NCBI GenBank assembly: GCA_030693425.1
Contig: JAUYAM010000002.1
Location: 81,151 to 145,150 of the forward strand
DNA from: a bacterium
Lineage (GTDB): Bacteria; Patescibacteriota; Minisyncoccia; Minisyncoccales; GWA2-46-15
DNA: 64,000 nt
Reading direction: 5' to 3'
Shown piece by piece: positions 10,259 through 33,715 of this stretch. The first letter of the stretch is position 1. Each line of letters starts with the position of its first letter. A model generated the notes under the pieces. The model was not told where the DNA came from, made no database searches, and saw nothing but the letters and a program-made list of their open reading frames with translations. The translations under genes were made by a program, and so were the position numbers.

Positions 10259-11470
10259 TTATCCTTCAGAAGTTAGATTTTTAACTAGGGGAAGAATTTT
10301 CAGGTTTTTGACTTGGCCGAGATTTCCCTTGAGACAGCCGGATTCTGTGAATTTGGCGCCTGGATTGTGTTTTTTCGGCAAGCCCCAGATTAAAAGCGGG
10401 ATCGGTCCTTTGGCGTGGGTCTTGGTTTGGCAGGAAGTGGCGTGGTCTGCAGTAATAACGAGCAGGGTATGCTTTAAATCTTTGAAAATTTTTAGTTCTT
10501 TGTCAACTTTTTCAATGAATTTTTTCTTGCCTAAAAAGTCACCGTTCTCGGCCAGGAGATCTGCGCCTTTGACGTGGCAGAAAACAAAGTCGTATTTTTT
10601 CAGGGCGTTTTTGGCGGCGTAAAACTTGTTTTTGAGATACGCCGAGGAAAAAGGATCCCCTTGCTTCTCTTTAATTATAGCCATTCCTAGGAATTTGGCT
10701 ATGCCTCGGTACAGCGCCCCCAAAGAAAGGCAGCCGGATTTCAGCCCCCACTTTTTTTGGAAACTTTCAACGTTTTTAAGTTTGCCCGCTCCTCTTAACA
10801 AGATGAAATTAGCCGGCATTTTTCCTTGCTTTTGCCTTTTCAAATTGAGAGGATGGTTTTCCAAAATCGGGTTTGCGGTTTTGAGAAACTCGTTGACAAC
10901 CCGGGCGGTAAAGCAAGCTTTGTCATTGTTTTTGCCCAGAGGCAGGCAGGGCCTGGTTTTCTTGATGAATTTTTCATCGGTGTCAGAAATTCTTTCTGAC
11001 AATCCCCTGCCTCGCAAAATCACGGCTAGGCGGTGGCCGTAGACCGGCTTGATTAAGAACTTCACTCCTTTAATTTTCAAGCCGTTCAGGGATTCAGCCA
11101 GAACTTTTGCTTCGCCGCTTTGTATCCGGCCGGCCCGGCGGTCAAGCACCAAACCGTTTTTATCAATGGTGGCAAGATTTCCCCGCAAAACAATGTCTTT
11201 GGGCAAAAGCTTGACGCCGCAGCCAATCGCTTCCAAAACGCCGCGGCCTGGCAGGAATTTTTTCGGGTCGTAGCCAAAAAGGGCAAAATGGACTTCTTCA
11301 GAATCAGGCAGTTTGCCTAAGAACAGAGGTTTGAAAAAAGCCAAAAGCCCGTTTCGGGCAAAACAATCAAGGTTTATTCGCCGCGCCGCTTCCAGCGGCG
11401 TCTTATTTCCCAGGGCCGGAATTTTATCGTCCGGCAGACCGTCAATCACCAAAAAGAGAATTTTTTTCAT
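10259..11470 (-). CDS. apgM: 2,3-bisphosphoglycerate-independent phosphoglycerate mutase, archaeal type
   Basis: 403 aa. N-terminal ILFLVIDGLPD and C-terminal ITADHATS metalloenzyme motifs typical of ApgM. Confidence 0.8.
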   Translation of the reverse strand: MKKILFLVIDGLPDDKIPALGNKTPLEAARRINLDCFARNGLLAFFKPLFLGKLPDSEEVHFALFGYDPKKFLPGRGVLEAIGCGVKLLPKDIVLRGNLATIDKNGLVLDRRAGRIQSGEAKVLAESLNGLKIKGVKFLIKPVYGHRLAVILRGRGLSERISDTDEKFIKKTRPCLPLGKNNDKACFTARVVNEFLKTANPILENHPLNLKRQKQGKMPANFILLRGAGKLKNVESFQKKWGLKSGCLSLGALYRGIAKFLGMAIIKEKQGDPFSSAYLKNKFYAAKNALKKYDFVFCHVKGADLLAENGDFLGKKKFIEKVDKELKIFKDLKHTLLVITADHATSCQTKTHAKGPIPLLIWGLPKKHNPGAKFTESGCLKGNLGQVKNLKILPLVKNLTSEG

Positions 11471-13083
11471 GACAGCGGCAGTTCAACGTAAAACGTCGCG
11501 CCTTTGCCCTCGCCCTCAGACTCGGCCCAAATCTTGCCCCGGTGCGCTTTGACGATTTCTTTGGCGATGTAGAGGCCGAGGCCGGTGCCGAGGGTGTTTC
11601 TTAATTTAGGATCGCGGCTAAATTGATTGAAAATCGTCCCGATGATTTCCGGACGAATGCCGACTCCGGAATCTTTGACCTCAACAACGGCCTTGTCTCC
11701 GGTTTTTGTTCTCTCGATTTTTACTTTCACTTCACCTTCGGGAGTATATTTAATGGCGTTGTCAACCAGGTTTTGGATCACCTGTCTTAATCTTTGTTCG
11801 TCGGCTTTCAGATCGATTGTGATCTCATTAGTTTGCAGTCCCAGCTCTAAACCCTTCTGTTGGCCAACGATTTTGTATTCTTCAAAGACGCTTTTGGCCA
11901 AAGCAACTAAATTGATGGTTTTGAATTCATAGTCCATTCTGTCTTCCTCGATCTTTCTTAAATCCAGGAAGTCGTCAACCAACTTGATCAGTCTTCGGGA
12001 GTTTTCTTTGATTCCCCAGACTGCCTTGCTGACGCCGCCATTGATCTGGCCATAGCTGCCTTCGGATATTAAATCGGCATAGCCATTGATGACGGTCAAA
12101 GGTCCTTTTATTTGGTGAGAGGCGAAAGACAGAAATTGCGATTTGAGTTCGTCTAATTTTTCCAGCCGCGCATTGGTGGTTTCCAGTTCGGCGGTCAATT
12201 TTTCCAATCTTTCTCTCTGCTCGACTTCGCGCAGGACGCCGCGAATTAGAAGAATACCAAACGTAAGAACAAAAATAAAAATCGAGCTTCGATAAATAAC
12301 TAACCCTAAATCTTGAGCAAAAATCACCTCGGAAAAAGTGACTACCGAGAGCAAAAACACTAATATCGCCGTTCCCGCCACTCGGATGTTAAAAAGCTTG
12401 TGCCTTAAAATCGCATAGGAAGTGAAAATAACAAACGGAAAAGTAAAAACGGCGCCAAAAGGAACAAACTTAGGATTATTGAAAAAGGCTGGAAGTACGA
12501 AGTTTAGAGGCAAAATAAGAGCAAATGTTATTGCCACACCAATTAATAAAAGTAAGAATTTTCTTTTATCTTGACCAGAAGCTTTTAGTGTTTTTCGTAA
12601 GAGAATCCAAAAACTGGATAAGATTAAACCGAATACGGTTAAGCCAAAAAAAACTATACCGGCTTCTGCTTTTAATGTTAAGATTTGACCTTCTTTTGAA
12701 ACAGTTTCGACCCCAGAAAATACGAACGGTGTAAGTGTAAGTAAAGAAACAGTTACAACCACGGGAATTAGCATTACGGTATACCAACGATGAAACTTCA
12801 GCCTCTCATTTGGAAAAACATAGAGTAGTTGAAAAATCATAAACGAGTGCCATATTCCCAAGAAGATCTCGATCCGCAGAAACCAGAAAGCAAGATTGAG
12901 ATCAACAATCCTATAACTCATGAGGTTAAAAAATCCCCAAAAGGCAGTCAGAATCGAAAAAACGAAGAATGTTTTATTTGTTATGCTCTTCGGGTTATTT
13001 AAAAGAACGCTAAAGCCAAGCACTACCGTAGACGCAATAGCTATCCCCACAGACAATAGATCTAGATTAGATAACACATTCAT
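11467..13083 (-). CDS. sensor histidine kinase with multi-TM N-terminal domain
   Basis: About 9 predicted TM helices, a coiled coil, HisKA (FASHQIKGPL) and HATPase_c (GTGLGLYIAKEIVKAHRG). The 4-nt overlap with apgM suggests co-transcription. Confidence 0.85.
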   Translation of the reverse strand: MNVLSNLDLLSVGIAIASTVVLGFSVLLNNPKSITNKTFFVFSILTAFWGFFNLMSYRIVDLNLAFWFLRIEIFLGIWHSFMIFQLLYVFPNERLKFHRWYTVMLIPVVVTVSLLTLTPFVFSGVETVSKEGQILTLKAEAGIVFFGLTVFGLILSSFWILLRKTLKASGQDKRKFLLLLIGVAITFALILPLNFVLPAFFNNPKFVPFGAVFTFPFVIFTSYAILRHKLFNIRVAGTAILVFLLSVVTFSEVIFAQDLGLVIYRSSIFIFVLTFGILLIRGVLREVEQRERLEKLTAELETTNARLEKLDELKSQFLSFASHQIKGPLTVINGYADLISEGSYGQINGGVSKAVWGIKENSRRLIKLVDDFLDLRKIEEDRMDYEFKTINLVALAKSVFEEYKIVGQQKGLELGLQTNEITIDLKADEQRLRQVIQNLVDNAIKYTPEGEVKVKIERTKTGDKAVVEVKDSGVGIRPEIIGTIFNQFSRDPKLRNTLGTGLGLYIAKEIVKAHRGKIWAESEGEGKGATFYVELPLS

Positions 13084-13127: not shown

Positions 13128-14132
13128 TTAACCGTTAATTAATGAATCTAGATTTAAATAATATCTTCCTGATGGTACCAGACAATTCGTCGCAATCTGC
13201 CTAGCAAAATAACAAAGCATTGCTCCCCGTAAAAACGAGGATTCGCTTGTTTGAGGAATGCCAACTAACCCCTTTCCCACTAAGTCAAAGGATTGTCTCA
13301 GTCTCTCGGTTAAAAATTCTGCGCCCATAAAGTCGCGCGCCAACATAACTCTTTCTTGCATGGGCGTAGTATCAACTAAAGCAGATACTTTATTTATAAC
13401 GTCCTCTTTCAAATAACCATTTAGTAATGGTAAATCCGGCTCCAAGTCAAAACGTTCAACGTCAATTATCAAACCGGGCCCATTGCCGGTAACCATTAAC
13501 ACTGGGATTTTATAATACTTGGCCCTTTCTCTAATTTTGATTTTTAATGGCAGATTATCCATTTCCTCGATCAATAAATCAATTCTTGGTTGAGTTAAGA
13601 ACCGGTCAGTATTGTCTTCGGATATCCCCTTGTCAAAAATTTCTATATCAATAAAAGGGTCAATTTCATAGGCTTGACGGGCCGACAGTACCGCTTTATT
13701 AACACCCAAATCACCCAAACTGGCCCTGAACCTGTTTAAGTTGGATAATTCTAAAACATCATTATCAGCAAATTTCATTTTTTCTGCTCCGCCTTCAAGA
13801 ATAATACAAAGAGCGCCTGGATTGCCCACATTTAAACCGGCAATTCCGATTGTTTGGCGAGAGAATTTTTCCTGTTCTTCATCGGTTATCAAGTTCTTAT
13901 TGCGCGAAAGCCTTAATAGACGATAATCTTCTTTGTTCACAATGCGGACTAATGCTCGATTCCACGGATAATAAACCCAGACATCGATTAGTTCGCTCGA
14001 AACCATCTTTTTTATTTTACTTAACTCCTTTATTTGATCGTCCAAAAAATCAACCACTCTGACATTGCTGTCTTGCTTCAACTTTTCTATCCTTTCTTTA
14101 TCTGTTATAGGATTAAGTATTTCTGGTTGCAT
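13128..14132 (-). CDS. ThiF/E1-like adenylyltransferase-fold protein (resembles the N-terminal half of Rv1355c/MoeY-type proteins)
   Basis: Degenerate Rossmann loop IGIAGLNVGN followed by ELSNLNRF, as in ThiF/MoeB/E1 enzymes. Also a WVYYPW motif. Family assignment is from memory. Confidence 0.6.
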   Translation of the reverse strand: MQPEILNPITDKERIEKLKQDSNVRVVDFLDDQIKELSKIKKMVSSELIDVWVYYPWNRALVRIVNKEDYRLLRLSRNKNLITDEEQEKFSRQTIGIAGLNVGNPGALCIILEGGAEKMKFADNDVLELSNLNRFRASLGDLGVNKAVLSARQAYEIDPFIDIEIFDKGISEDNTDRFLTQPRIDLLIEEMDNLPLKIKIRERAKYYKIPVLMVTGNGPGLIIDVERFDLEPDLPLLNGYLKEDVINKVSALVDTTPMQERVMLARDFMGAEFLTERLRQSFDLVGKGLVGIPQTSESSFLRGAMLCYFARQIATNCLVPSGRYYLNLDSLING

Positions 14133-14140
14133 AGCATTAA

Positions 14141-15169
14141 TTAAGAAATTACTTTTTTTGTTAATTCATGTCTTGGTGTTGCTTGGTGCAATAAATCAAC
14201 TTTTCCCACAACGAATAGGAATTGCGGTATTTGGTCGGTGCCAACAACTTTCTTAATCTCACTTTGTAGATATCCCATTTCCACCGCTGCCACGAAAATA
14301 GAAGTCTGCCAACCAAAACTATTAAATTCTAGCATAAGCCTTTCGGCTAATAGGCCTACCTTAAGCCAAGTGTTTTGATTGTCTTTGGTTGCCGTAATTA
14401 CAGTAACCAGCGGCGCCGAACTCAAGCTTTTGTAATTTAATTTAGACAATAAACCACCCAGATTGAACCACTTAACCAAAGTTGGCAACACAAAAGACAA
14501 CAACAATGGCATTCTCAGAGCATAACCGGGCAAGCCATCTTTGTTTTTCGTTAAACTGTGGTGCATCCACCGCGACATCTCCCTACGAAAAGCGGGGCGG
14601 CGATAAGCAATCTTTAACCCCTCGACGGTTAGCCTAGACAACTTAATTATCTTGTCTTTATCCGTTACCCAGTGCACATTTATCCCTTCAACTAAGTAAT
14701 GCTGTGTTGCTGACGATATAAGATTGATCAGATTGGTTGGTACCGGTTCTGACGAAAACAAACCACGAGCATTTATTCTTTTGGTGATAGTATCAAGAAT
14801 TCTTTTATATTCATCATTTCTCGCGCCCGTATATTTTTTAAAGCGTATAGCGGCCAGTTGTTCCTTATCTTCAAACGGACCATAACTAATAGAGTCAAAA
14901 ATATTAAAATATGTAGCAGCTAAAATTAAGTTTTCTATGGCGCAGCCAATACTGATATGCAGATCTCTGGTTTTAGGATCAGCTTCCGGCAATAGTAATT
15001 TCGGATCATAATATATTTGGCATTCCGGCGCTTTTATCTTAAATAACCAAGGTTGACTATTATGGGTAGATGGCGCCAAAATAGCATAACTTAAAGCAAA
15101 TTTTATATGCTCCTGCAGATCGCCATTTCTAGGGAATTCTTCCGGATTGATTAATCTAATGTCTTGCAC
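14141..15169 (-). CDS. Acg-family nitroreductase-fold FMN-binding protein
   Basis: 342 aa, double-lobed size. APSTHNSQPW motif and a C-terminal ATPR motif, as I recall for M. tuberculosis Acg-like proteins. Confidence 0.65.
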   Translation of the reverse strand: MQDIRLINPEEFPRNGDLQEHIKFALSYAILAPSTHNSQPWLFKIKAPECQIYYDPKLLLPEADPKTRDLHISIGCAIENLILAATYFNIFDSISYGPFEDKEQLAAIRFKKYTGARNDEYKRILDTITKRINARGLFSSEPVPTNLINLISSATQHYLVEGINVHWVTDKDKIIKLSRLTVEGLKIAYRRPAFRREMSRWMHHSLTKNKDGLPGYALRMPLLLSFVLPTLVKWFNLGGLLSKLNYKSLSSAPLVTVITATKDNQNTWLKVGLLAERLMLEFNSFGWQTSIFVAAVEMGYLQSEIKKVVGTDQIPQFLFVVGKVDLLHQATPRHELTKKVIS

Positions 15170-15191
15170 GGTATTAATTTAAAATAAAATT

Positions 15192-16688
15192 TCATTTCTT
15201 TACCCACCTTTGTTTAATTCCCAGTTTAAAATATTTTGGATCTTCAGCCGGCCAAAACTGCAAGCGCGGCAAGGCGCGTTTGCCGAGGAATTTATGGAGC
15301 TCGCGATATTCAGAATTCTTGAGTTGCAACTGTTCAACAATGACGCTAAGAGTCGCCTGCTTGATAGCCCGAGGCACGATGTCATTGCGGGATTTACGCA
15401 TTTCCAAATGAATCAGGAGATATTGATTTTGCTTGCTGTTAAACCGCGTTTCTAAGGTAAATTTCCCTGTTAAATAGGCGCTTAATGGCTTTTTAAGCAA
15501 CGCTTCCCGTATTGGCTCGGGATAAACCTGCAGGCCGTAGAGATTGGTAGAAAAGTCGGCTCGTTCGTAGACATAAACAAAAGGAAGTTCGTGCCAAAAT
15601 TTTTCTATCCCCGCCTTTTTTGCCTCCTTTTTCAAGTCTACTCCTAATTCGCTTAACTTCTTTGTAAGTTCCCGGAAAGAATAAACCCCGCCGTGATCTC
15701 CTAAAGCGTATCTTATGAGCGGCATCGTGTTGTTGCCGCTTACCAAGAGATCATCACCTTCGGCGTCAAACGAAATAAAAGAGGGTATGTATTGGCCTAA
15801 AGTCGGGGTCTTTTGAATTTTTTTGAAGATTGCTTCAAACAACTTTTGATTTTTGGCGCAAAGCCGGCGAATCAAAATTGCCAGGGGCGTCTCAAAAGCC
15901 ATGGCTCCGAGGTCGGCGGTGCCGTAAATATTCATCGTATCAATGAAAGAATTTCTCATATTAACCGCTCTGGAGACATATTCCCGGAAATCCTCGGTAA
16001 AAACTTCTGCTGCAAAAAGCAAGCGGACGCGGAATTTCCGCCAATCAATGCCGCGGGACGGCGCTTCGTCAATAATGTCTTTGATGAGCGGCGGATAACC
16101 GACTAAAATAATATTTTTGTATGATCTTCCAAGGTCCTTCAGCGACTTAAAGATTTCCTCTTTGTTAATGCCCGGGGTGATTAAAGAAACATTATAGCCC
16201 CTCTCCTGAAGCAAGTGGAATGCCTGATAAGTAATCAGGCCGCCGATCCAAACACCCATGCCGAAACAGACAATCACCAGTACTGGTTCTTCTTTTTCGT
16301 ACTGGCCCTGGAGATAAAATAATTCGTGGATAACCGAAGTTTGTAAATCTAAGTCGAAAGATCGATGAAAATAAAAAGGGGTACCGGTGGCTCCGGAAGT
16401 AGAGGTAAAAACAAGCGGTTTATCAATACGCCCGTCAATGGTCAATTCAGATAAAGGATATCTGCGCAGATAATTTTTCTTATCAATCGCCGGCAATAAC
16501 CGAAGATCAGCAACGGTTTTAATATTTTCTGGCTTAACTTTATTATTCCGTAAAAAATCCTGATAAGCAGGAACTTGTCCACTAAGCAAACGAAAGAGAT
16601 TTAAAACACTCTCGCCTCTAATTTTTTCCCAAAACAAACTCTCCCGCGTCTTAATTTGTTGAATAATCCGACTGGCTTTTGTCTTCAT
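15192..16688 (-). CDS. PaaK/CapK/F390-synthetase-like adenylate-forming enzyme
   Basis: 498 aa. TSTSGATGTPFYF (AMP-binding P-loop equivalent of SSGTTGKP) preceded by LPAIDKKNYLRRYP, typical of phenylacetate-CoA ligase-like proteins. Confidence 0.65.
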   Translation of the reverse strand: MKTKASRIIQQIKTRESLFWEKIRGESVLNLFRLLSGQVPAYQDFLRNNKVKPENIKTVADLRLLPAIDKKNYLRRYPLSELTIDGRIDKPLVFTSTSGATGTPFYFHRSFDLDLQTSVIHELFYLQGQYEKEEPVLVIVCFGMGVWIGGLITYQAFHLLQERGYNVSLITPGINKEEIFKSLKDLGRSYKNIILVGYPPLIKDIIDEAPSRGIDWRKFRVRLLFAAEVFTEDFREYVSRAVNMRNSFIDTMNIYGTADLGAMAFETPLAILIRRLCAKNQKLFEAIFKKIQKTPTLGQYIPSFISFDAEGDDLLVSGNNTMPLIRYALGDHGGVYSFRELTKKLSELGVDLKKEAKKAGIEKFWHELPFVYVYERADFSTNLYGLQVYPEPIREALLKKPLSAYLTGKFTLETRFNSKQNQYLLIHLEMRKSRNDIVPRAIKQATLSVIVEQLQLKNSEYRELHKFLGKRALPRLQFWPAEDPKYFKLGIKQRWVKK

Positions 16689-16712
16689 TGTCTGCTAAAA
16701 TTATACCATAAT

Positions 16713-18083
16713 ATGGTGGCAACAACAAAACAATTTAATATATTGGCCACAATAAGGCGGGAATTAACAGGACAGTTGTTAGCAAGAGTGGATAAAGGGG
16801 CAAATCCTTTAAGAGCTAATGCTTTGATTTGGAGTGAGTATGCAGATAGGTGTAATAAAGAAGGCTTGCCAGTTATTGGCGCGAATTTAAGTTTAGGCAA
16901 TATTGATGCGAGCAGCTTTGATCGTGAGCCGGGACATTGGCATTTGTCTCAAGCGTTGGGAATTCACCCTGATGGTGAAATATATAGGCAAATTAGTCTG
17001 ACTAAAGAAAAGTTAAATAGAGAGTATTATTTTTCAGGTAGATCGCTGGCGAAATATGGCGATTTTACCGGTATAGAAGAAGCGAGACTGGCTTTTTCAA
17101 AATATTTAGCCCAGTGGGGCGGAGTGATGATCAGTAAAGAAGAAACGTTTTTTTCTAGTGGCGGAACTTCAGATGCGGCTCAAAGAGAAATGGGAGCTTT
17201 GGTTTTATGGTTAGATAAGAAGCAACTAGAGGCTAACTTTTTAACCACTGTCCCTGGATACACGCCGGTAATTAATATGGCTAGAAGAGCGGGGATGCGA
17301 GTGATAACTTTAGAATGTGGCGAGACGGATAGTTATTTTTTACAGGCGGACCAGGCGCGTCAGATAGTACAAGATCAAAACATAGGAGTATTTTATATCG
17401 TACCGATTAACAATCCGACTGGGACGATGATTCCGGCGGATCAGCTAAGTCGGGTAGTAAAGCAAAGCTATGAAGCAAATACGGCAATAATTTTTTTAGT
17501 GGATTTGGCTTATATTACTACGGTGCCTGAAGAACAGGCGCGCGCGATGTTGGCAGTATTCAATAACAAAGAGATTTTAAGACAGACCGTGTTTTTAACC
17601 TCTTTGTCTAAATCTCACGCAATTCCCGGGCAGCGGCTGGGAGCTTGTCATACAATAGTAGCCGGAATGAACGAGTGTTTGCGCGCGGCCACCGAGGCCG
17701 GCAATCCCTGTCATTCAGCCGCGGCAATGCTGGAAGCGGTAGCGGTGCTGGAAAATGTTAGCAAGGAGGCAGTGCGGCAAACTGCGGCAGTGTATAGGCG
17801 GCGTAGAGAGGTAACAGTTGATGTTTTAAGAGACATTAATCGATTAACTGATAGAGAATTGTTTATTGATTTAGACCAGTTGAAAACTGACGGGGCGTTG
17901 TATGTTTATCCGCGACTAGGAAAAAGTAAAACTAGTTTGGATCTTTTTGTTCAGACTGGAATGTGGGGAATTGGGGGAAGATTTTTTGGGGCGGGTGACA
18001 ATGATCAACGAGTGCGCTTGGCAATAGGAGTTAATTCCAGTTTGGAAATTCAAGGCATTCCTTCACAACTAGATCTGTCTTAA
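16713..18083 (+). CDS. class I/II PLP-dependent aminotransferase
   Basis: INNPTGT and SLSKSHAIPGQRLG (PLP-lysine) motifs. Start trimmed from 16656 to MVATTKQ to remove overlap with the divergent gene. Confidence 0.8.
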   Translation: MVATTKQFNILATIRRELTGQLLARVDKGANPLRANALIWSEYADRCNKEGLPVIGANLSLGNIDASSFDREPGHWHLSQALGIHPDGEIYRQISLTKEKLNREYYFSGRSLAKYGDFTGIEEARLAFSKYLAQWGGVMISKEETFFSSGGTSDAAQREMGALVLWLDKKQLEANFLTTVPGYTPVINMARRAGMRVITLECGETDSYFLQADQARQIVQDQNIGVFYIVPINNPTGTMIPADQLSRVVKQSYEANTAIIFLVDLAYITTVPEEQARAMLAVFNNKEILRQTVFLTSLSKSHAIPGQRLGACHTIVAGMNECLRAATEAGNPCHSAAAMLEAVAVLENVSKEAVRQTAAVYRRRREVTVDVLRDINRLTDRELFIDLDQLKTDGALYVYPRLGKSKTSLDLFVQTGMWGIGGRFFGAGDNDQRVRLAIGVNSSLEIQGIPSQLDLS

Positions 18084-19943: not shown

Positions 19944-20864
19944 TTAATGATCTATATAACAATAACACAAACCTGTTCTCAAAGCAACTCTTGGGCGCCA
20001 TTTGGTCAATTCATTAATCTTTTTTATATCTGCTCTAATAATAGAAGAATCTAATATTCTTTGTCTTAGTTTTACAGATTTTAGTTCAAACCTTTTTCCC
20101 GAGATATTATTTAAAATTCCAAATACCTGCTCTACCGACCATGCCTTGCCGGTTCCTACATTGAAAATCTGATTTTTACAATTAGTCTTAGTAAGGCTAA
20201 TTACGATGGCTCTTACAACATCCTCCACCCAAATATAATCCCTTCTACTTTTGAGATTACCTAGTTTTACCTCTTTATCTGCTTTCATTTGTTTGATTAT
20301 CTCGGGAATCAAGTGCGATGTTGTATCGTTTGGGCCGTACACATTAAATAGCCTCAAGGCCGTATAATCAATTCCGAATATGGGACTTAAAGTTCCTATT
20401 ATTTTCTCCCCTAATATTTTTGAAGCTCCATATATATCTAAAGATCCAACCTTATCAGTTTCTTTATGGGGCTTATTGCTGGGATAATAAACAGACGCTG
20501 AGGAAGAAAATATAAGTCTCTTTATGCCGTATTTTTTCATTAAAACAAGGATATTAAGGGTTCCGATTACATTTGTTTCAATCGTTTCTTTTTTATGGGC
20601 TTGACAATAAGGCATATAATGCTTTGCTGCTAAATGAATAATTGTGTCTATCTTCTCTTTTTTGAATACGTCCTCCAGTAGATTGCTCTTATATATATCT
20701 ACTTTATAAAATTTTACTTCGTTATTGATAAACGGTTTTCTTTCAGAAGACAGGTCATCAATTACAATTACCTTATACCCTAATTTTATAAGACTATTAA
20801 CCAAAAAGCTTCCTATAAATCCGCATCCTCCCGTCACAAGAATATTACTCTGTTTTCTTTTCAT
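19944..20864 (-). CDS. NAD-dependent nucleotide-sugar epimerase/dehydratase (SDR)
   Basis: VTGGCGFIGS Rossmann motif and catalytic YGASK. Confidence 0.8.
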   Translation of the reverse strand: MKRKQSNILVTGGCGFIGSFLVNSLIKLGYKVIVIDDLSSERKPFINNEVKFYKVDIYKSNLLEDVFKKEKIDTIIHLAAKHYMPYCQAHKKETIETNVIGTLNILVLMKKYGIKRLIFSSSASVYYPSNKPHKETDKVGSLDIYGASKILGEKIIGTLSPIFGIDYTALRLFNVYGPNDTTSHLIPEIIKQMKADKEVKLGNLKSRRDYIWVEDVVRAIVISLTKTNCKNQIFNVGTGKAWSVEQVFGILNNISGKRFELKSVKLRQRILDSSIIRADIKKINELTKWRPRVALRTGLCYCYIDH

Positions 20865-21420
20865 ATATAAGTTTTTCTATTAAGTTTCTGATTATTTTTT
20901 CTTCTACAAATGCACTATCTTTAAAAACATTTAAACTTTTAGTGTTGTCTTTACCAAATAGCATTTCGCAATAAAGTTTTAAATTTCGATTATAATTTCT
21001 GACAAGTTTATCATTAATCAGAATAAATTCTTTTAAATCCTTATTATCAAGAGATTTAGTTCCTATAAGGTAATCTTTATAGTTTATGTTAAAAATAATA
21101 CATAGGTCAAAGTTTTTATACGCCAAAAATCTCTCGTCTGCAATTAGTTTTCGTACGAGCGCATCTTTACTATCTCTACTTTTTATAAAAGATAGAGTAG
21201 AAGCAACAGACCTTTCTAAAACAACATCTGATTCCACTTCCATAGCCTTTTCTAAATTTTCTAAGTGCTTGTCATAATACCATCTATCTAGATCGGTTTT
21301 TTCTAATTTATGCTTTTTATGATCTGGCTCTCTTATAAATACAAAATCGTGCTTTTTTTCCAGAAATTCGCAAGCCAAGGTTTTTCCCAAAGCCCATAGG
21401 CCTTCAATTACGATTTTCAT
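20845..21420 (-). CDS. P-loop nucleoside/nucleotide kinase-like protein (deoxynucleoside kinase-like)
   Basis: Walker A GLWALGKT, REPD, and an ERS motif (VLERSVAS) as in dNK-family kinases. Weak assignment. Confidence 0.45.
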   Translation of the reverse strand: MKIVIEGLWALGKTLACEFLEKKHDFVFIREPDHKKHKLEKTDLDRWYYDKHLENLEKAMEVESDVVLERSVASTLSFIKSRDSKDALVRKLIADERFLAYKNFDLCIIFNINYKDYLIGTKSLDNKDLKEFILINDKLVRNYNRNLKLYCEMLFGKDNTKSLNVFKDSAFVEEKIIRNLIEKLIYEKKTE

Positions 21421-22636
21421 AATTTAAAGTTATATAATCTGGAACAGTAGACGAAAATTTTACTCTTTTTTCTTCCAGCCACATAGGTAGGGGCGATAGT
21501 CGTTGAAAAAAAATTTTATTCTTTTTCTCCTTATCCTTAACCCCAAGAACGAAAGAGCTTCTTTTTTTCTTAAATTTTGTTTTCTTGTAAAGCTTAATTA
21601 CTTTCTCGGCTATAAAATCAAATGAAAACTTTTTGCAAACTATTTCCCGCGCTTTTTTACTTTGTTCGGTTGCTACTTTCAGGTCATCCAATAGTTTCTC
21701 AACTAATTTCGGATATTTAGTGATATCATTTTCAATAATTGCAATATTGCGTGGATAACCTGAAATTCCCATTTCAGTAGATACTATAGGAAGCCCTGAG
21801 GCCGCGTAATTTAAAAGTTTTACTTTCATTCCAGAACCTTCAAAGACCGGTGCTATTGCAATAGAAGATTCTTTCAAAAAGGGCCTAATATCATCCACCC
21901 CTCCAGTAAAAACAACCTTGTCGGAAGAGAATTTCCTGCGGAAAGAATCTTCTACCATGCCAATACACAACAGTCTGGCATTGATATGGGGCACTATCAT
22001 TTTAATTGCTATTTCTGCAGCATTTCTGTTTGGTTCATAGAACATATTCCCCAGAAAAATAATTTGTCTTTTAGGTAAATTAGGAGAATTATACTTAAAA
22101 TAATCAGTATCTATACCGTTCGGTATTAAATTTATTTTATCCTTGAGTATGCCCATGTGAATGAATTCTTTTTTATCTTTAGGCGTCATACATATTACCT
22201 CATGAGAAAGATAGCCGGCAGAATATTGTATAAATTCTGAAATATCAATATCCTGTCTATCGCACCCGAGAGTCTTCTTTATAATTGCGTCACAATCATG
22301 CATCTCTGTAACAAGCGGAATTCTTAATTCATTAGAATAATATGCCCCGTACGAAAGCACCGATGAAGAGTTATTCACTTGGATAATGTCTGGCTTTTCT
22401 TTGCTAATAACGTTTTTTACGAAGTCTATCTTTTTATAAAAAACTTCTGGTGAAAATATATGAAATACAAAAGGTTCCTTTTTTAGGTCGTTATGGGAAA
22501 CCCATCCTCTCTCGCAAAGAAACATTACAACTCTAACCCCCTTTTCTTCAAGTTTTTTAGATAAATAGTACAGACGAAAGGCTACACCGCTTTTGGGAGG
22601 TATTTCAATGCCATCAAAGATTATACCTATTTTCAT
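21404..22636 (-). CDS. GT-B glycosyltransferase (family 4/1-like)
   Basis: 410 aa with two Rossmann-like halves. C-terminal EGSGMKVKLLNYAASGLPIVST matches the GT4 E-x7-E region. Confidence 0.75.
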   Translation of the reverse strand: MKIGIIFDGIEIPPKSGVAFRLYYLSKKLEEKGVRVVMFLCERGWVSHNDLKKEPFVFHIFSPEVFYKKIDFVKNVISKEKPDIIQVNNSSSVLSYGAYYSNELRIPLVTEMHDCDAIIKKTLGCDRQDIDISEFIQYSAGYLSHEVICMTPKDKKEFIHMGILKDKINLIPNGIDTDYFKYNSPNLPKRQIIFLGNMFYEPNRNAAEIAIKMIVPHINARLLCIGMVEDSFRRKFSSDKVVFTGGVDDIRPFLKESSIAIAPVFEGSGMKVKLLNYAASGLPIVSTEMGISGYPRNIAIIENDITKYPKLVEKLLDDLKVATEQSKKAREIVCKKFSFDFIAEKVIKLYKKTKFKKKRSSFVLGVKDKEKKNKIFFQRLSPLPMWLEEKRVKFSSTVPDYITLNYENRN

Positions 22637-22872
22637 GATAGAAGATGTTCTTTCTTAAAATATTTATAATGATTCCTTTCCTTTTTGCTATGATTTGATC
22701 TACCAGCATTTTCATCTCCAAAAAAAGAAGCAAGCAGCCTTGCCAACCCTTTATTAAAGCAATACACTCTCCTGTTTTTGTAATTATAAATGTAAATTTT
22801 GTCGTTTATCTCTTTTGCTATTATCATAATTGTCGTCGTTTTTATATTTATGCTATTTCCTTCAGAATCCAT
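22633..22872 (-). CDS. hypothetical small protein (79 aa)
   Basis: ATGA overlap with the glycosyltransferase gene. Faint resemblance of KIYIYNYKNRRVYCFNKGLARLL to PqqD-like peptide-binding domains, which is not enough to call. Confidence 0.3.
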   Translation of the reverse strand: MDSEGNSINIKTTTIMIIAKEINDKIYIYNYKNRRVYCFNKGLARLLASFFGDENAGRSNHSKKERNHYKYFKKEHLLS

Positions 22873-22975
22873 AAGGTTACTTGTAATAATCTTGTTTTTC
22901 CAACATTAAAGCAGTTTTTAGTAGCAAACTCGAGCTTTGCAATTTCTGGCCTCCGACGCCAAAGACCACTTCTAT

Positions 22976-23299
22976 TCATATTACTACCTCTGAAACATTC
23001 TCGGGAGTTAAATCTCCTCCCCTAGTAAAGATATTGGGCTTTATTTTCTCCAGTGTCTTAATTACTGTTCTGTGTTTGTCTATTGATAATACTGCTTCGT
23101 CCACCCACTTAATTGCTTTCACTATTTCAAATTTCTCTTTTCCTATCATAAAAGGCGCGCTTCCCTTTAATTTCACCTGTTCATCATTGTTCACTATCAC
23201 TATCAATTTATCTCCAAGCTTCTTGGCACCTCTTAAATATTTTAAATGTCCTATATGAATTGGATTAAAATATCCGCTGGCAACAACTATTTTCATCAT
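22976..23299 (-). CDS. cytidylyltransferase-fold nucleotidyltransferase, ends at an in-frame TGA (see finding)
   Basis: GYFNPIHIGH (HxGH) nucleotidyltransferase motif. 107 aa is short for the family. The same frame continues for 32 protein-like codons after the TGA. Confidence 0.65.
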   Translation of the reverse strand: MMKIVVASGYFNPIHIGHLKYLRGAKKLGDKLIVIVNNDEQVKLKGSAPFMIGKEKFEIVKAIKWVDEAVLSIDKHRTVIKTLEKIKPNIFTRGGDLTPENVSEVVI

Positions 23300-23362
23300 T
23301 TTGATCTTATGAAAATAACCCTGTAAATCTAAAATTTTTATGATTATCTATAAAGAGTTTAA

Positions 23363-24079
23363 CTAGAAATATCCATCTATTTCTTTGTCTAGTCGTTTAA
23401 AAAAATCTGCCATAAATTTATGCCTATCTATCGCCATTTTTTTACCTTCTTCTGTAAGCATTCTGTCTTTAATTTTACAAAGCTTAACACTAAATTCTCT
23501 ATAGGCAGTATCCTCTTTCGTATATGGCTTGGTTTTTTCCAGATCAATATCTTTATTATGAAGTCTGGCTCCGATTTCCCCAGAAAACAGAAAAGCCCTT
23601 CCTATGCCACAAGCTCCAATGGCATCAAGTTTATCCGCATCAAATAAGATTTGGGCCTCTCTACTCTGCGGGAAATTATTGCTTCTAAATCTGTGCGTTT
23701 TTATACAAGAAATAATTTTTTCTATTTTTTCTTGATCAATGTTATGTTTTTCTAAAAGTTCTTTGGCCAAAATCGCTCCCTTTTTGGCGTGACAAACCTT
23801 TCCATTTGACTTATATTCTTCTTCTCTGCCTATATCGTGTAAAATCGCGGCCATCCCTAGAACCTCTGTATCTACATTTTCCAAGCTACCTATTTTAATA
23901 CAAAGATTATAAACTCTTAAAGTATGGTCCCAGTTGTGGCTTCCTCTAGAATTTATAAAAAACTTCCTTGCTTCTTTTTTGATTCCCGACCAATCAAGAG
24001 TCAATCCATTCTTCTTATAAATTTTTCCTTTTTGCTGCCCTATTTCTTTGGGACTCCCTTTAAACGTTTTTATTTCCAT
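23363..24079 (-). CDS. HD-domain phosphohydrolase
   Basis: WDHTLRV, AAILHDIGR, FDADKLDAIG. Confidence 0.75.
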   Translation of the reverse strand: MEIKTFKGSPKEIGQQKGKIYKKNGLTLDWSGIKKEARKFFINSRGSHNWDHTLRVYNLCIKIGSLENVDTEVLGMAAILHDIGREEEYKSNGKVCHAKKGAILAKELLEKHNIDQEKIEKIISCIKTHRFRSNNFPQSREAQILFDADKLDAIGACGIGRAFLFSGEIGARLHNKDIDLEKTKPYTKEDTAYREFSVKLCKIKDRMLTEEGKKMAIDRHKFMADFFKRLDKEIDGYF

Positions 24080-25137: not shown

Positions 25138-25301
25138 CGGGTGACAATGATCAACGAGTGCGCTTGGCAATAGGAGTTAATTCCAGTTTGGAAATTCAAG
25201 GCATTTCTTCACAATTAGATCTGTCTTAACTAATAGATAATTTTTCTGCGCCTCGGGCTTCTCGGATATTTTGAAAGCCGTCTTTTTTCAAAAGTTGCAC
25301 C
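25129..25301. repeat. 173-bp direct repeat, copy 2 (antisense-orphan aminotransferase 3' fragment plus functional pyrD 3' end)
   Basis: Hand alignment to 17983..18155 gives 7 mismatches. Confidence 0.9.
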
Positions 25302-26356
25302 AAACCGCGATTGATTTCGCTGATGAACTGCGGGCCCTCAAAAATCATTCCGGTAATGAGTTGGACCAGCGAAGCGCCCGCTTTAATTTTTGTATAGGCG
25401 TCAATGGCTGAAAAAATGCCGCCGCAGCCAATAATAATATATTTTCCACCGCTTTTCCGATAAATGAAGCGAATTTGAGCGTTGGACAACTCTTCTGTTG
25501 GCTTTCCGCTAATGCCGCCTTTTTCTGGAACTATCTGATCGCCCATTTTTAACGCGCTTCTATTTTTAGTAAGATTGCCGCAGATAAATCCATGAATGCG
25601 GTGGTTCTCGCATACTCGGAGGATAGCGTCAATCTGTTCTTCGCTTAGATCAGGAGACATTTTTAAAAAGATGGGTTTCTTCGTAGAAACGGCGTCAATT
25701 GCTAAAAGAAGACGGTTGAGTCGATCGGGTTCGGTAAAGGGCTCGCCGCCAAAAGCGTTCGGGCAGCTAATGTTGATGGTAAAGTAATGACCAATATCAA
25801 CAAACTGGCGAAACGCTTTTAGATAATCGTTAATTCCGGCTTCGGTTTCAACCGTGGCTAAACTATTAGTCTTGGCAATACTTGTTCCGAGAGGGATTTT
25901 GAAATTTTTTGAGCGTAACCGGCCAGCTATTTTTTCACATCCTTGATTCTTTAATCCGTAATATACTAGGAGAGAGCGCGATTCTTTCAAACGCCATAAC
26001 CGCGGCTTAGGATTGCCTTCGCACGGTTCACCGGTGATGGATCCTACTTCCGCAAATCCAAACCCAACGCAAGGAAGAATGTCAGTGAGCAAGGCGTCTT
26101 TATCAAAGCCAGCAGCCAATCCCACTGGATTAGGAAAATGTATTCCGAGGAGATTTTGTTCCAGCATCGGATGAGTAAAAGAAAATGACAGCGACGTTGC
26201 CTTTCTTGTAATCGCGCGTTGTCCGAGAAACTTGCCTATCCGCGTCATGGCGTTGTGAACTTCTTCCGGATCGAGGCGAAAATAAATAGGTTTTAATATA
26301 TTGGCGTAAAAAAAGTGAAACAATTTGTTTCGCGCCGCTATCGTCAAATTATTCAT
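25226..26356 (-). CDS. pyrD: dihydroorotate dehydrogenase, class 2 (quinone-type)
   Basis: 376 aa. N-terminal extension typical of class 2, plus GLAAGFDKDA and GCGGIFSAIDAY motifs. Confidence 0.85.
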   Translation of the reverse strand: MNNLTIAARNKLFHFFYANILKPIYFRLDPEEVHNAMTRIGKFLGQRAITRKATSLSFSFTHPMLEQNLLGIHFPNPVGLAAGFDKDALLTDILPCVGFGFAEVGSITGEPCEGNPKPRLWRLKESRSLLVYYGLKNQGCEKIAGRLRSKNFKIPLGTSIAKTNSLATVETEAGINDYLKAFRQFVDIGHYFTINISCPNAFGGEPFTEPDRLNRLLLAIDAVSTKKPIFLKMSPDLSEEQIDAILRVCENHRIHGFICGNLTKNRSALKMGDQIVPEKGGISGKPTEELSNAQIRFIYRKSGGKYIIIGCGGIFSAIDAYTKIKAGASLVQLITGMIFEGPQFISEINRGLVQLLKKDGFQNIREARGAEKLSIS

Positions 26357-31863: not shown

Positions 31864-31960
31864 GCCAGAGATAAAATGTCCGAGGATAACGAATTTCATT
31901 ATTAGACAAATCTCCTTTAACTGCTTATTATTTTAGCACGATAGCTGGGGTTGCCAAGCC

Positions 31961-31989
31961 TTGACTTTCCCTACAGGGCGTGGTATAAT
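31961..31989 (+). promoter_or_regulatory. near-consensus sigma70-type promoter (TTGACT-17 nt-TATAAT, with TGn extended -10)
   Basis: ttgact ttccctacagggcgtgg tataat. Lies 79 nt upstream of the ATG at 32068. Confidence 0.6.
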
Positions 31990-32067
31990 TGAGGTGTTGT
32001 ACACTGTCAATCCCGCTGAGGCGTTATGCCGGAAGCGGGAAAAATATTCAGAAAAGGAGAAGTACAG

Positions 32068-33545: not shown

Positions 33546-33715
33546 GAAGGTAGCTCAAATGAGAAAAAAAGTGCCCAAAGTATATGCCCAAAGCGTATGC
33601 GGCGGGCACTTTTTCATTAGCATTTCGATCAGACAGTTCCTCTTTATTACAACGCCGCCGGGGCGCGTTGTGTTAAACTTCACTTCGTACAAGATCATTT
33701 CAAAAACAACCATAC

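Follow-up and report, generated by a model that had tools for sequence, protein, structure and literature searches.

A patescibacterial five-gene module that may make, and possibly sense, an amino-acid-derived oxazolone-type heterocycle

Introduction

TrzS (Rv1355c) is a fusion of a ThiF cyclase with an FDO that makes N-acyl tryptazolones (Kleetz et al., JBC 2025, PMC12856293), combining an ATP-dependent cyclase with an O2-dependent desaturase, both acting on N-acyl amino acids (PMC12856293). Its split homologues include TyzB and TyzC, which together with TyzA form the N-acyl tyrazolone pathway (TyzA/TyzB/TyzC being Rv2336/Rv2338c/Rv2337c; Grigg et al., JBC 2023, PMC10404671), and OxzB, from the OxzAB system of Pseudoalteromonas rubra (de Rond et al.). 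An earlier note on the DNA analysed here had treated the function of Rv1355c as unknown, which is out of date; because this protein is TrzS (PMC12856293), the pairing of ThiF-like and FDO proteins has characterised chemistry. Among PaaK-fold enzymes, ClxA and NatL2 of benzoxazole biosynthesis form amides or esters straight from the adenylate (PMC9400959, PMC12519233).

The locus described here lies in a 64,000-nucleotide stretch of DNA (the window) from an ultra-small Patescibacteria/CPR bacterium. Its five-gene module is proposed to make, and probably to sense, an amino-acid-derived heterocycle of the oxazolone type.

Results

Gene layout, conservation and fusions

The window contains three closely packed ORFs on the minus strand, separated by 22 and 8 nt, with an aminotransferase gene diverging from them (Table 1). 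The coordinates, spacing and domain assignments given in the earlier note for the three minus-strand genes were all confirmed, as was the divergent aminotransferase, and the identical three genes were called independently on a public contig that carries this locus (L001). The earlier outline of the operon had, however, ended too early: a 7TM histidine kinase gene continues the operon after a 44-nt gap following the ThiF-like gene, and it is part of the conserved unit. The aminotransferase ORF extends over 16656..18083(+) and opens with TTG at 16656, but the true start is likely the ATG at 16714, 25 nt from the start of the ligase gene.

Table 1. Genes of the module and their positions in the window
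Product	Length	Position	Strand	Remarks
PaaK-fold (ANL superfamily) adenylating ligase	498 aa	15192..16688	(-)	
Acg-type flavin oxidase (FDO)	342 aa	14141..15169	(-)	GTG start
ThiF-like adenylating cyclase	334 aa	13128..14132	(-)	TrzS/Rv1355c N-terminal type
Sensor histidine kinase	538 aa	11467..13083	(-)	HisKA_7TM
Class I/II (PLP) aminotransferase	~456 aa	16714..18083	(+)	divergent

The linkage of the enzymes to the kinase and to an amino-acid-converting enzyme extends over hundreds of species, with gene content kept while gene order varies; the three genes are widely found together, in contrast to the possibility raised earlier that they never co-occur outside this genome. The ThiF-like and FDO genes are adjacent, in either order, in most of 80 related loci, and the ThiF, FDO and kinase genes share the strand of the ligase gene in 44 of the 57 ligase loci with enough sequence. 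Fusions were found in all pairwise combinations as well as in a triple form (dehydrogenase-ligase, ligase-ThiF, ThiF-ligase, ligase-FDO, ThiF-FDO and the triple fusion dehydrogenase-ligase-ThiF), and none of the junctions inspected carried a stop-codon read-through signature. The ThiF-FDO fusions (loci L074 and L076) are 731-733 aa long and score 450 bits on the Rv1355c model; both the split proteins and this fused CPR form (450.5 bits) fall under the equivalog cut-off of 476 bits. These fusions and the frequent adjacency bear out the suggestion that an Rv1355c-type protein is here split into a ThiF-like and an Acg-like gene, in reverse order, and that the two form a functional pair.

The ThiF-like protein and the FDO

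The ThiF-like protein matches Pfam ThiF (E 2e-17), and its residues 10-333 match positions 22-340 of the Rv1355c model NF005901, in the N-terminal half of that model, with 304 bits (E 1.6e-90). An Rv1355c-family (TrzS-family) protein of Jiangella alba aligns with it end to end at 35% identity (E 1e-62), and its sequence relatives in the PDB include TcdA and ThiF. The ATP-site residues Gly103, Gly114, Asp123, Asp125, Asn131, Asn133, Arg134, Lys146, and Asp192 are invariant across 63 loci, with Asp192 at the motif position of the Mg-binding Asp of ThiF/MoeB. On the strength of these matches, the protein is proposed to be an ATP-dependent cyclodehydratase.

The FDO scores 199.1 bits on the Acg family model NF047509, for which the cut-off is 199 bits, and matches the C-terminal half of the Rv1355c model with an E-value of 2.7e-19; against the FDO half of a Jiangella TrzS-family protein the identity is 23% (E 2e-16). 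The top fold match of its AF2 model (pLDDT 94.1) is the Acg homologue 2YMV (E 3.5e-17), which is also the closest reported structure to the FDO domain of TrzS (PMC12856293). Invariant residues comprise Ala-Pro-Ser32-34, Asn37, Gln-Pro-Trp39-41, Arg131, and Arg135. From these similarities the FDO is proposed to be a Cα/Cβ desaturase, but its reaction may differ from that of the FDO half of TrzS, given that it scores 199 bits on the Acg family, whose function is not known, against 69 bits on the TrzS half.

The PaaK-fold ligase

A Pfam search with the ligase gave no match. The PaaK model TIGR02155 is matched weakly (E 7e-14) and, at 51 bits against a cut-off of 646, falls far short, and residues 37-259 give weak PaaK, FlxY, and F390-synthetase matches. 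A Foldseek search with the AF2 model of the ligase (pLDDT 82.6) returned PaaK1, PaaK2, and BT_0428 (E ~5e-21), with HCL and the amide ligase ClxA also among the top matches. The family is 50-86% identical over 80 Patescibacteria loci, and the P-loop (Thr95-Pro104), Tyr255-Gly256, Asp331, Arg376, and Gly490/Lys492 are invariant. Nor is the ligase a CapK-type enzyme of a capsule locus, the other case that the earlier note had named as refuting. The replacement of the known N-acyltransferase by a strongly conserved PaaK-fold ligase appears to be new. We propose that the ligase carries out a CoA-independent acyl- or amide-forming step, and the data would fit the formation of an amide or of a CoA thioester alike.

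The most serious alternative, which we nonetheless consider unlikely, is that the ligase is an ordinary acyl-CoA synthetase of the aryl-acetate (PaaK-like) type, N-acylation being left to an unlinked acyltransferase or occurring spontaneously, with the ThiF/FDO chemistry unchanged. The nearest relatives by sequence or fold are indeed CoA ligases (PaaK, BT_0428, and HCL), and the known oxazolone pathways begin with acyl-CoA. However, the score on the PaaK model is low, contiguous modules contain no acyltransferase gene, and there are direct fusions of the ligase with ThiF, with FDO, and with the dehydrogenase, which suggests that the ligase product is handed straight on.

The 7TM histidine kinase

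The kinase contains the Pfam domains HisKA_7TM, HisKA, and HATPase_c. Its residues 3-287 include about 8-9 hydrophobic segments, forming a polytopic membrane domain that lacks a large extracytoplasmic domain. Of the 57 ligase loci with enough sequence, 52 have the kinase downstream of the enzymes, and in the reverse test the FDO was found upstream in 50 of 50 kinase-centred loci; the association is also present in distant fused subtypes. This two-way association of the enzymes with a 7TM kinase appears to be new. No response regulator was found near the kinase in the window, and only 23 of 81 loci have a receiver-only regulator within 10 kb.

Distances in the 7TM domain correlate with those in ThiF (0.47) and FDO (0.48; an independent set gave 0.57). 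With the ligase (0.10) and the kinase core (0.16-0.24) the correlation is weak, and the locus pairs behind these statistics are not independent. The switch in correlation is abrupt and falls where the membrane domain meets the DHp domain. A ligase/kinase-core correlation of 0.67 was not reproduced in a second set. The co-variation of the sensor domain with the enzymes could also arise because adjoining stretches of DNA are physically linked when they recombine. We propose that the kinase is a receptor or regulator partner of the enzymes.

A slightly less probable alternative than the acyl-CoA synthetase is that the kinase regulates the enzymes in response to an outside cue (such as redox state, O2, or contact with the membrane or a host) and is no receptor for the product, or that the Acg-type flavoprotein serves as its redox accessory. 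FDO-kinase adjacency is the tightest link in the module, HisKA_7TM has no known ligand, and the Acg-family genes of M. tuberculosis belong to the DosR regulon, with Rv3131 adjoining dosS. Against this, a domain search of the kinase revealed no sensory domain of the PAS, haem, or GAF type, and it is with ThiF and FDO, not with the kinase core, that the sensor domain co-varies, as would be expected of a matched ligand and receptor but not of a generic cue.

The amino-acid-converting enzyme

The aminotransferase matches Pfam Aminotran_1_2 (E 4.9e-27), and its divergent arrangement is retained in L085/L086, from a relative whose ligase is 84% identical. A tblastn search over 80 species loci did not find it, and the window's own aminotransferase is conserved in close relatives only. 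The corresponding slot is occupied in 40 of 67 loci: 24 have an ELFV dehydrogenase there, 13 a HisC-like aminotransferase, and 3 a class IV aminotransferase. That four unrelated enzyme families converting amino acids to 2-oxo acids fill this ligase-adjacent slot appears to be new. The link to an aminotransferase drawn in the earlier note holds at the level of function. The aminotransferase probably supplies an amino acid or 2-oxo acid building block.

It is also conceivable, although rather improbable, that the ligase activates an amino acid or 2-oxo acid and couples it with a second amino acid, so that a dipeptide or α-ketoamide results, that the ThiF-like protein closes a ring of the diketopiperazine, pyrazinone, or imidazolone type and that the FDO acts like a cyclic-dipeptide oxidase. 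A dehydrogenase or aminotransferase adjoins the ligase, and a dehydrogenase is fused upstream of it in the dehydrogenase-ligase(-ThiF) proteins, suggesting that what this neighbour makes, a 2-oxo acid or amino acid, is the substrate of the ligase; two adenylating enzymes would moreover suit two dehydrative bond formations, and nitroreductase-fold flavoenzymes such as AlbA also desaturate cyclic dipeptides. The ring types fit the data alike, but the closest characterised ThiF homologues turn N-acyl amino acids into oxazolones.

Peptide and carrier-protein alternatives

Pairs of E1-like and nitroreductase-fold proteins are known from azole-forming RiPP systems (reviewed in PMC12596934), and an analogy had been drawn with TOMM/RiPP-like systems, in which a ribosomally made peptide is matured by an FMN dehydrogenase together with an E1-like protein for docking or activation. 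It found no support and is very improbable: YcaO is absent from the operon and its conserved neighbours, the gaps of 22, 8, 44, and 25 nt are too small for a precursor ORF, by fold the FDO resembles Acg, IYD, and BluB rather than azoline dehydrogenases, and the ThiF-like protein is specifically TrzS-like, models other than Rv1355c scoring at most 69 bits. Least probable of all is that the ThiF-like protein serves sulfur transfer or conjugation by activating a ThiS/MoaD/ubiquitin-like carrier protein in the classical E1/ThiF manner: despite the Pfam ThiF match, the ThiF/MoeB models score a weak 20-53 bits against 304 for Rv1355c, the ThiF-like protein has no conserved Cys across the 63 loci, and the module has no β-grasp carrier, rhodanese, or JAB gene.

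Discussion

With about even confidence, we favour a CoA-independent, oxazolone-type pathway whose product the kinase probably senses, on the basis of gene content, homology, conserved catalytic motifs, two-way co-occurrence, fusions, and co-variation. The aminotransferase, or in most relatives a Leu/Phe/Trp-type dehydrogenase, would interconvert an amino acid and a 2-oxo acid to give a building block. The ligase, in a step for which there is precedent, would adenylate a carboxylic acid and use it to acylate the amino group of an amino acid directly, yielding an N-acyl amino acid without acyl-CoA and taking the place of the TyzA/TrzA/OxzA acyltransferase. By homology to TrzS/TyzB, the ThiF-like enzyme would adenylate the amino-acid carboxylate, with the amide oxygen closing a 5(4H)-oxazolone ring, and by homology to TrzS/TyzC the FMN oxidase would desaturate the Cα/Cβ bond. 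Linkage and co-variation suggest that the hydrophobic product, or an intermediate, may be the ligand of the kinase membrane domain, on the model of the synthase-receptor pairs of cell-cell signalling. For acyl donor, amino acid and ring type, this scheme gives what we infer. The FDOs characterised so far require O2 and many Patescibacteria are anaerobes, which counts against the proposed pathway. The module points to a small molecule derived from an amino acid that has yet to be described and may be a signal.

Comparison with known systems

As in the cassettes agrBDCA, comQXPA, and cqsA/cqsS, which pair a signal synthase with a membrane sensor kinase, biosynthetic genes adjoin a histidine kinase with a polytopic membrane domain, and the sensor co-varies with the biosynthetic enzymes while uncoupled from the kinase core, like pherotype regions. 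The proteins of those systems are unrelated to those of the module, however, and the module has no identified secreted signal, export system, or DNA-binding regulator; a signalling role here is putative.

With the Acg/Rv3131 family (NF047509; 2YMV), the FDO shares a score at the family cut-off and a pseudo-dimeric double nitroreductase fold (TM 0.72-0.75). In mycobacteria, the family members belong to the DosR regulon, stand alone and have no known substrate, whereas the FDO of the window has a fixed place in a module with ligase, ThiF and kinase, a hint that it may act as a desaturase.

ClxA and NatL2 have the same PaaK-type ANL fold as the ligase and provide the precedent for CoA-independent acyl transfer from adenylate to amine. 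Their substrates, however, are aminohydroxybenzoates, structural alignment with the window ligase gives only 13-14% identity, and the ligase's family has no characterised member.

TyzABC and OxzAB resemble the module in having split ThiF and FDO genes side by side, in acting on a small molecule rather than a peptide and in coupling ATP-dependent cyclisation to flavin-dependent desaturation. They differ in using an acyl-CoA/acyl-ACP N-acyl amino acid synthase of AHL-synthase-like fold, and their clusters are not reported to include a ligase, dehydrogenase, or kinase.

TrzA/TrzS (Rv1356c/Rv1355c) of M. tuberculosis and its relatives belong to Actinomycetota rather than Patescibacteria. The module has a PaaK-fold ligase in place of the TrzA acyltransferase and adds a 7TM kinase as well as an aminotransferase or dehydrogenase dedicated to it; in the window the halves of TrzS are separate, in the order FDO then ThiF, and the FDO is nearer to the Acg family than to the FDO half of TrzS. 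The ThiF-like cyclase is nevertheless homologous end to end, it partners an FDO for which the nearest solved structure is Acg 2YMV, and fused ThiF-FDO forms exist in related CPR loci.

Organization of the operon

The PaaK-fold ligase, the Acg-type flavin oxidase (FDO) and the ThiF-like protein are encoded by three consecutive minus-strand ORFs, separated by 22 nt (ligase/FDO) and 8 nt (FDO/ThiF), positions and gaps that the earlier note had placed exactly. Gene calls in L001, a public contig carrying an identical locus, agree with these three ORFs. The DNA comes from a metagenome-assembled genome of the Patescibacteria, with Falkowbacteria and Wildermuthbacteria as the closest relatives that bear names. 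A gene for a histidine kinase with a seven-transmembrane (7TM) sensor follows, and the ATG assigned to the divergent aminotransferase lies 25 nt from the ligase start. An Rfam search of the window returned a single tRNA only, and a promoter and terminator scan over 8.5–18.6 kb was uninformative, with counts close to the shuffled expectation. The slot beyond the kinase, occupied in the window by an apgM-type mutase, holds an unrelated His_Phos_1 (cofactor-dependent-type) mutase in the close relative L085 (13239..13916), a non-homologous replacement; the genes beyond the mutase, for a protein of ~325–330 aa and then a glutaredoxin, are conserved between the window and L085.

Features of the window, with coordinates on the forward strand
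Feature	Position	Strand	Remarks
apgM-type cofactor-independent phosphoglycerate mutase	10259..11470	-	next gene after the kinase; 4-nt overlap with the kinase stop
HisKA_7TM histidine kinase	11467..13083	-	44 nt after the ThiF gene
ThiF-like protein	13128..14132	-	334 aa
Acg-type FDO	14141..15169	-	342 aa; GTG start
PaaK-fold ligase	15192..16688	-	498 aa
Class I/II aminotransferase	ORF opens 16656; start placed at ATG 16714	divergent	start from gene calls in L001 and a close relative
Low-GC stretch	20001..24000		GC 0.32–0.33 versus ~0.45 elsewhere
Quinone-dependent PyrD	25226..26356	-
L-2-hydroxyglutarate-oxidase-like FAD enzyme	26433..27764	-
Second HisKA_7TM kinase	27796..30039	-	747 aa; GAF between membrane domain and kinase core
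Protein without family match	30094..31098		334 aa
Region of highest GC	31900..33600		GC 0.576
ORF in high-GC region	31933..32592	-
ORF in high-GC region	32026..32682	+
ORF in high-GC region	32679..33545	+

The low-GC stretch, perhaps a sugar-modification island gained by horizontal transfer, has no relation to the operon; it encodes a GT4 glycosyltransferase, a GalE-like epimerase, kinase-like proteins and an HD-domain protein. In the region of highest GC the ORFs overlap on both strands, and none has a match in Pfam, NCBIfam or Rfam.

The ThiF-like protein and the flavoprotein

The earlier note had described Rv1355c as a protein of unknown function in which a ThiF-like and a nitroreductase-like domain are fused, a view that is now outdated. 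Rv1355c has been characterized as TrzS, which makes N-acyl tryptazolone from N-acyl-tryptophan (Kleetz et al., JBC 2025, PMC12856293), the ThiF-like domain being responsible for ATP-dependent cyclisation and the FDO domain for O2-dependent desaturation, with acyl-tryptophan supplied by the acyltransferase TrzA (PMC12856293). The split counterparts TyzB (ThiF) and TyzC (FDO), with the acyltransferase TyzA, produce tyrazolones (PMC10404671), and OxzAB from Pseudoalteromonas rubra was the first oxazolone example. Oxazolones do not survive exposure to acid or to alcohols (PMC12856293).

Homology to the N-terminal half of TrzS spans the whole ThiF-like protein, including parts beyond the Pfam ThiF core: residues 10–333 align to positions 22–340 of the Rv1355c model NF005901 with 304 bits (E 1.6e-90), and the ThiF, MoeB and TcdA models give 20–58 bits. 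By BLASTP the protein is 35% identical over 334 aa to P0471 of Jiangella alba, a bona fide Rv1355c-family protein scoring 939 bits against the Rv1355c model. A group of longer Rv1355c-family proteins from outside the Patescibacteria (CPR), exemplified by P0469 (950–1047 aa, 903 bits), carries ~240 extra N-terminal residues, which could be a fused acyltransferase. Across 63 loci the nucleotide-site residues Gly103, Gly114, Asp123, Asp125, Asn131, Asn133, Arg134, Lys146 and Asp192 are invariant, and in alignment with ThiF-type structures Asp192 falls on the Asp of their DN motif. Mutation D217A in TrzS (Msmeg numbering) abolishes cyclisation, and Asp192, judged by its motif position, is probably the counterpart of that residue. 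No Cys is conserved across the 63 sequences; together with the invariant nucleotide site, this fits a direct cyclase and not a thioester-forming E1.

The FDO scores 199.1 bits against the Acg model NF047509, marginally above the cut-off of 199, and 69 bits against the C-terminal half of the Rv1355c model. For the predicted structure (pLDDT 94), the best Foldseek match by far is the Acg homologue 2YMV (E 3.5e-17, TM 0.72/0.75), which is the nearest solved structure for the FDO domain of TrzS as well (PMC12856293). Other high fold matches are IYD, BluB and the C-terminal domain of FbiB, and no azoline dehydrogenase of the SagB/McbC type is found among the 50 best. The commoner FDO type of the CPR, for example that of locus L010, gives 200 bits against PRK14851, 160 against Rv1355c and 148 against Acg, as compared with 199 (Acg) and 69 (Rv1355c half) for the window protein; TrzS, TyzC and OxzB fall into the FDO-A clades. 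An APS..N.QPW motif and Arg131/Arg135 are invariant across loci; the FMN-site residues of TrzS are Arg540 and Gln651. At three loci (L026, L046 and L060) a gene of the ApbE family (FMN transferase) lies immediately upstream of the ligase and may be connected with the flavoprotein.

The PaaK-fold ligase

The ligase has no match in Pfam, and its weak matches to PaaK, FlxY and F390-synthetase are confined to residues 37–259; against TIGR02155 (PaaK) it scores 51.2 bits over the N-terminal half only, where the equivalog cut-off is 646. Its AlphaFold2 model (pLDDT 82.6) adopts a PaaK-type ANL fold, with PaaK1/2, BT_0428, 2-hydroxyisobutyryl-CoA ligase and the amide ligase ClxA as best Foldseek matches (2Y27, 2Y4O and 4R1L at E ~1e-20). 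The adenylation motifs, comprising the P-loop (95–104), Tyr255-Gly256 (YGT at 255), Asp331, Arg376 and Lys492, are invariant in the family, which forms 498 clusters at 50% identity. Profile and fold matches thus bear out the PaaK-like, Acg-type and ThiF-like assignments made from sequence in the earlier note.

Distribution, gene order and fusions of the module

A search with the ligase, limited to one genome per species, gave 270 confirmed relatives, all of them from Patescibacteria; 80 of these loci were analyzed, with ligase identities of 50–86%. In the 57 loci for which 5 kb or more of downstream sequence is available, a ThiF gene on the strand of the ligase is present in 49, an FDO gene downstream in 49, a HisKA_7TM kinase downstream in 52 and all three in 44; given the crude ORF calling, these are minimum counts. 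The reverse search, with the 7TM domain of the kinase as query against metagenomes, employed a 6-sequence HK-domain alignment, a 15-sequence alignment being too divergent, and yielded 50 loci that extend 4 kb or more upstream. Gene order varies among these kinase-centered loci, and an FDO gene lies upstream of the kinase in all 50, a ThiF gene in 42 and a ligase gene in 39.

The ThiF and FDO genes are paired, in either order, in 45 of the 57 loci; 35 loci have the order ThiF-FDO, and 9 share the FDO-ThiF order of the window. L074 and L076 each encode both domains in a single fusion protein (731–733 aa) with ~450 bits against the Rv1355c model. The fused protein of L074 (450.5 bits) and the split window proteins (304 and 69 bits) fall under the equivalog cut-off of 476, so that the CPR proteins represent a related subfamily and not the Rv1355c equivalog. 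The suggestion of a split Rv1355c therefore holds: the ThiF-like protein matches the N-terminal half and the FDO the C-terminal half, and the two are adjacent or fused in relatives.

Multi-domain relatives of the ligase, sought among 1.84 billion representative proteins, comprise the fusions dehydrogenase-ligase (P0248), ligase-ThiF (P0257), ThiF-ligase (P0331), ligase-FDO (P0437) and dehydrogenase-ligase-ThiF (P0321, 1242 aa), and no sign of TGA read-through as Gly or Trp was seen at the fusion junctions examined. The proposed check by co-occurrence and gene fusion was thus positive on both counts, the three genes occurring together widely in Patescibacteria. Around the fused forms the gene order is FDO, fusion protein, alpha/beta-hydrolase and 7TM kinase. 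The hydrolase (Abhydrolase_1, 291 aa; L082 11732..12607, L083 4550..5425, L084 7681..8556) sits between the enzymes and the kinase in the DH-ligase-ThiF and ThiF-ligase subtypes, where a bactofilin and a DAGK_cat protein come after; it could act in ring opening, as a thioesterase or in signal degradation. Eight loci carry between FDO and kinase a protein of ~310 aa (cluster c14; L051 4202..5143, with further examples in L023, L038, L040, L049, L066 and L071) that has no Pfam or NCBIfam match and a GSGS motif, by which it may be a methyltransferase. No homologue of c14 or of the ELFV dehydrogenase described below was found in the window. Two ligase modules (L035 and L066) that differ in cassette type and gene order are present in MAG REEB413, so that paralogous systems can share one genome.

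The enzyme beside the ligase

An aminotransferase of the window type occupies the same divergent position in one relative (L085/L086), whose ligase is 84% identical to that of the window, and is absent next to the ligase from all 80 species loci. The slot upstream of the ligase is filled elsewhere by a Glu/Leu/Phe/Val-type (ELFV) dehydrogenase in 24 loci (best NCBIfam match the tryptophan dehydrogenase ScyB, 318 bits), by a HisC-like class I/II aminotransferase in 13 and by a class IV aminotransferase in 3, together 40 of the 67 loci that extend far enough upstream; L087 also has the class IV enzyme. One slot is filled by any of four unrelated enzyme families whose net function is the same, which argues that conversion between amino acid and 2-oxo acid belongs to the pathway. 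The possibility that the window aminotransferase is unrelated to the module was dropped, since close relatives retain the enzyme and it gives way elsewhere to three function-equivalent families. The fusion order dehydrogenase-ligase-ThiF suggests, moreover, that the dehydrogenase or aminotransferase feeds the ligase.

A TrpRS gene lies near the module in L007, L009, L010, L015, L044, L067, L068 and L079, and AspRS genes and the dnaK operon (DnaK-DnaJ-GrpE) recur near it at several other loci. Such tRNA synthetase and dnaK neighbors may be plain CPR synteny, and the TrpRS neighbor together with the ScyB match of the dehydrogenase could hint at an aromatic substrate.

Co-variation of the kinase sensor with the enzymes

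Residues 3–287 of the kinase contain ~8–9 hydrophobic segments without a large extracytoplasmic domain, and no ligand of HisKA_7TM was found in a literature search. There is no response regulator near the kinase in the window; of 81 loci, 23 have a receiver-only regulator no more than 10 kb away.

Pairwise distance matrices from 48 genome loci were compared by Spearman correlation (Mantel p ≤0.004 for the main pairs); physical contiguity of the block is a possible confounder, and pairs of loci are non-independent. ThiF and FDO correlate at 0.76, and the 7TM domain of the kinase correlates with ThiF at 0.47 and with FDO at 0.48, as compared with 0.10 with the ligase and 0.24 with its own kinase core. 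Sliding windows along the kinase revealed that the correlation switches sharply at the boundary between membrane domain and DHp, and a ThiF/FDO signal is absent along the entire length of the ligase. A second, independent set, of 28 metagenome loci, gave a similar result: the sensor domain tracks the FDO most closely (0.57, p 0.002) and the kinase core poorly (0.16). The correlation between ligase and kinase core in the genome loci (0.67) was not reproduced in this set and is thus not relied on.

The module is also a mosaic. The window ligase shares 86% identity with its counterpart in L004 (Wildermuthbacteria), yet the ThiF proteins share only 39% and the gene order differs, whereas the window ThiF and FDO are closest to those of L039 (71% and 64%), whose ligase has only 55% identity. 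Such a pattern points to a swap of the ThiF-FDO cassette between lineages.

The second HisKA_7TM kinase of the window is 38% identical to the operon kinase in the core and only 27% in the membrane domain. Its gene lies downstream of that for the 334-aa protein and upstream of those for the FAD enzyme and PyrD, with no ligase/ThiF/FDO set linked to it.

Proposed pathway and alternative readings

By analogy with the oxazolone systems, a pathway can be proposed in which the aminotransferase or dehydrogenase would supply one building block and the ligase would join an acid and an amino acid with ATP, yielding the N-acyl amino acid directly and replacing the acyl-CoA-dependent acyltransferase. No acyltransferase resembling TyzA, TrzA or OxzA was found in the window operon or within the contiguous modules of related loci, and the PaaK-fold enzymes ClxA and NatL2 are a precedent for amide or ester formation direct from the adenylate (PMC9400959, PMC12519233); the rival reading of this step is that the ligase makes acyl-CoA only. 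By homology, ThiF would then adenylate the carboxylate of the N-acylated amino acid and close the oxazolone ring, and the FDO would desaturate the Cα–Cβ bond, although a dipeptide or keto-amide closed into another ring type is a competing possibility for the same enzymes. The 7TM kinase, whose sensor domain varies with ThiF and FDO, would sense the product; alternatively, it may be a regulator or redox partner and not a receptor. The enzymology, read from homology and gene context, is held with moderate confidence, and the signaling role with less.

Two further readings are very unlikely. The earlier note had seen a likeness to TOMM maturases, a form of RiPP maturation, but the operon and its conserved neighbors contain neither YcaO nor a precursor gene, the intergenic gaps are just 8–44 nt and the flavoprotein fold is of the Acg type, not that of an azoline dehydrogenase. 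E1 activation of a ThiS/MoaD-type carrier protein is opposed by the lack of a beta-grasp carrier gene in the modules and of a conserved Cys. A CapK-type enzyme of a capsule locus was likewise rejected, the glycosyltransferase and epimerase genes (19.9–22.6 kb) being apart from the operon and not conserved with it.

The genomes of Patescibacteria are very small and encode almost no biosynthetic capacity. The module is nevertheless retained in 270 or more genomes at species level, which places it among the few candidate specialized-metabolite pathways of these organisms. It offers leads to an ATP-dependent synthesis of N-acyl amino acids that may dispense with CoA and to a functional context for the Acg flavoproteins, which are enigmatic in M. 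tuberculosis. We tentatively suggest, as a possibility with the odds against it, that the module is a self-contained CPR signal system, in which the CoA-independent ligase, ThiF and FDO make an oxazolone-like autoinducer from an amino acid, the co-encoded 7TM kinase reads it and the ThiF-FDO-sensor block is exchanged as a specificity cassette. If true, this would be the first small-molecule signaling system assigned to these ultra-small episymbionts and would give oxazolones a physiological role. A signaling role for oxazolones has been speculated on by the authors of the TrzS study (PMC12856293), an idea that can be put to a direct test where the pathway is linked to a sensor kinase.

Comparison with known systems

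The chemistry of ThiF and FDO is already known, and in the CPR module, as in the TrzS, Tyz and Oxz systems, ThiF lies next to or is fused with the FDO. The module differs from these systems in that their acyltransferase (TrzA, TyzA or OxzA) is missing and the ligase is found instead. No published account of such a module was found in the literature searched, and several features appear undescribed: a ligase that takes the acyltransferase's place, an amino acid/2-oxo acid enzyme dedicated to the module, a 7TM kinase that is an obligatory component and has a sensor domain co-varying with the enzymes, and the wide distribution of these features in Patescibacteria. The co-variation of sensor and enzymes seen here resembles that of the specificity regions known from agr and comQXP, and the proposed exchange of the ThiF-FDO-sensor block would be comparable to that of agr and comQXP pherotypes; linkage of enzymes to a kinase and co-variation of the sensor are features that the CPR module shares with agr/comQXP-type cassettes.
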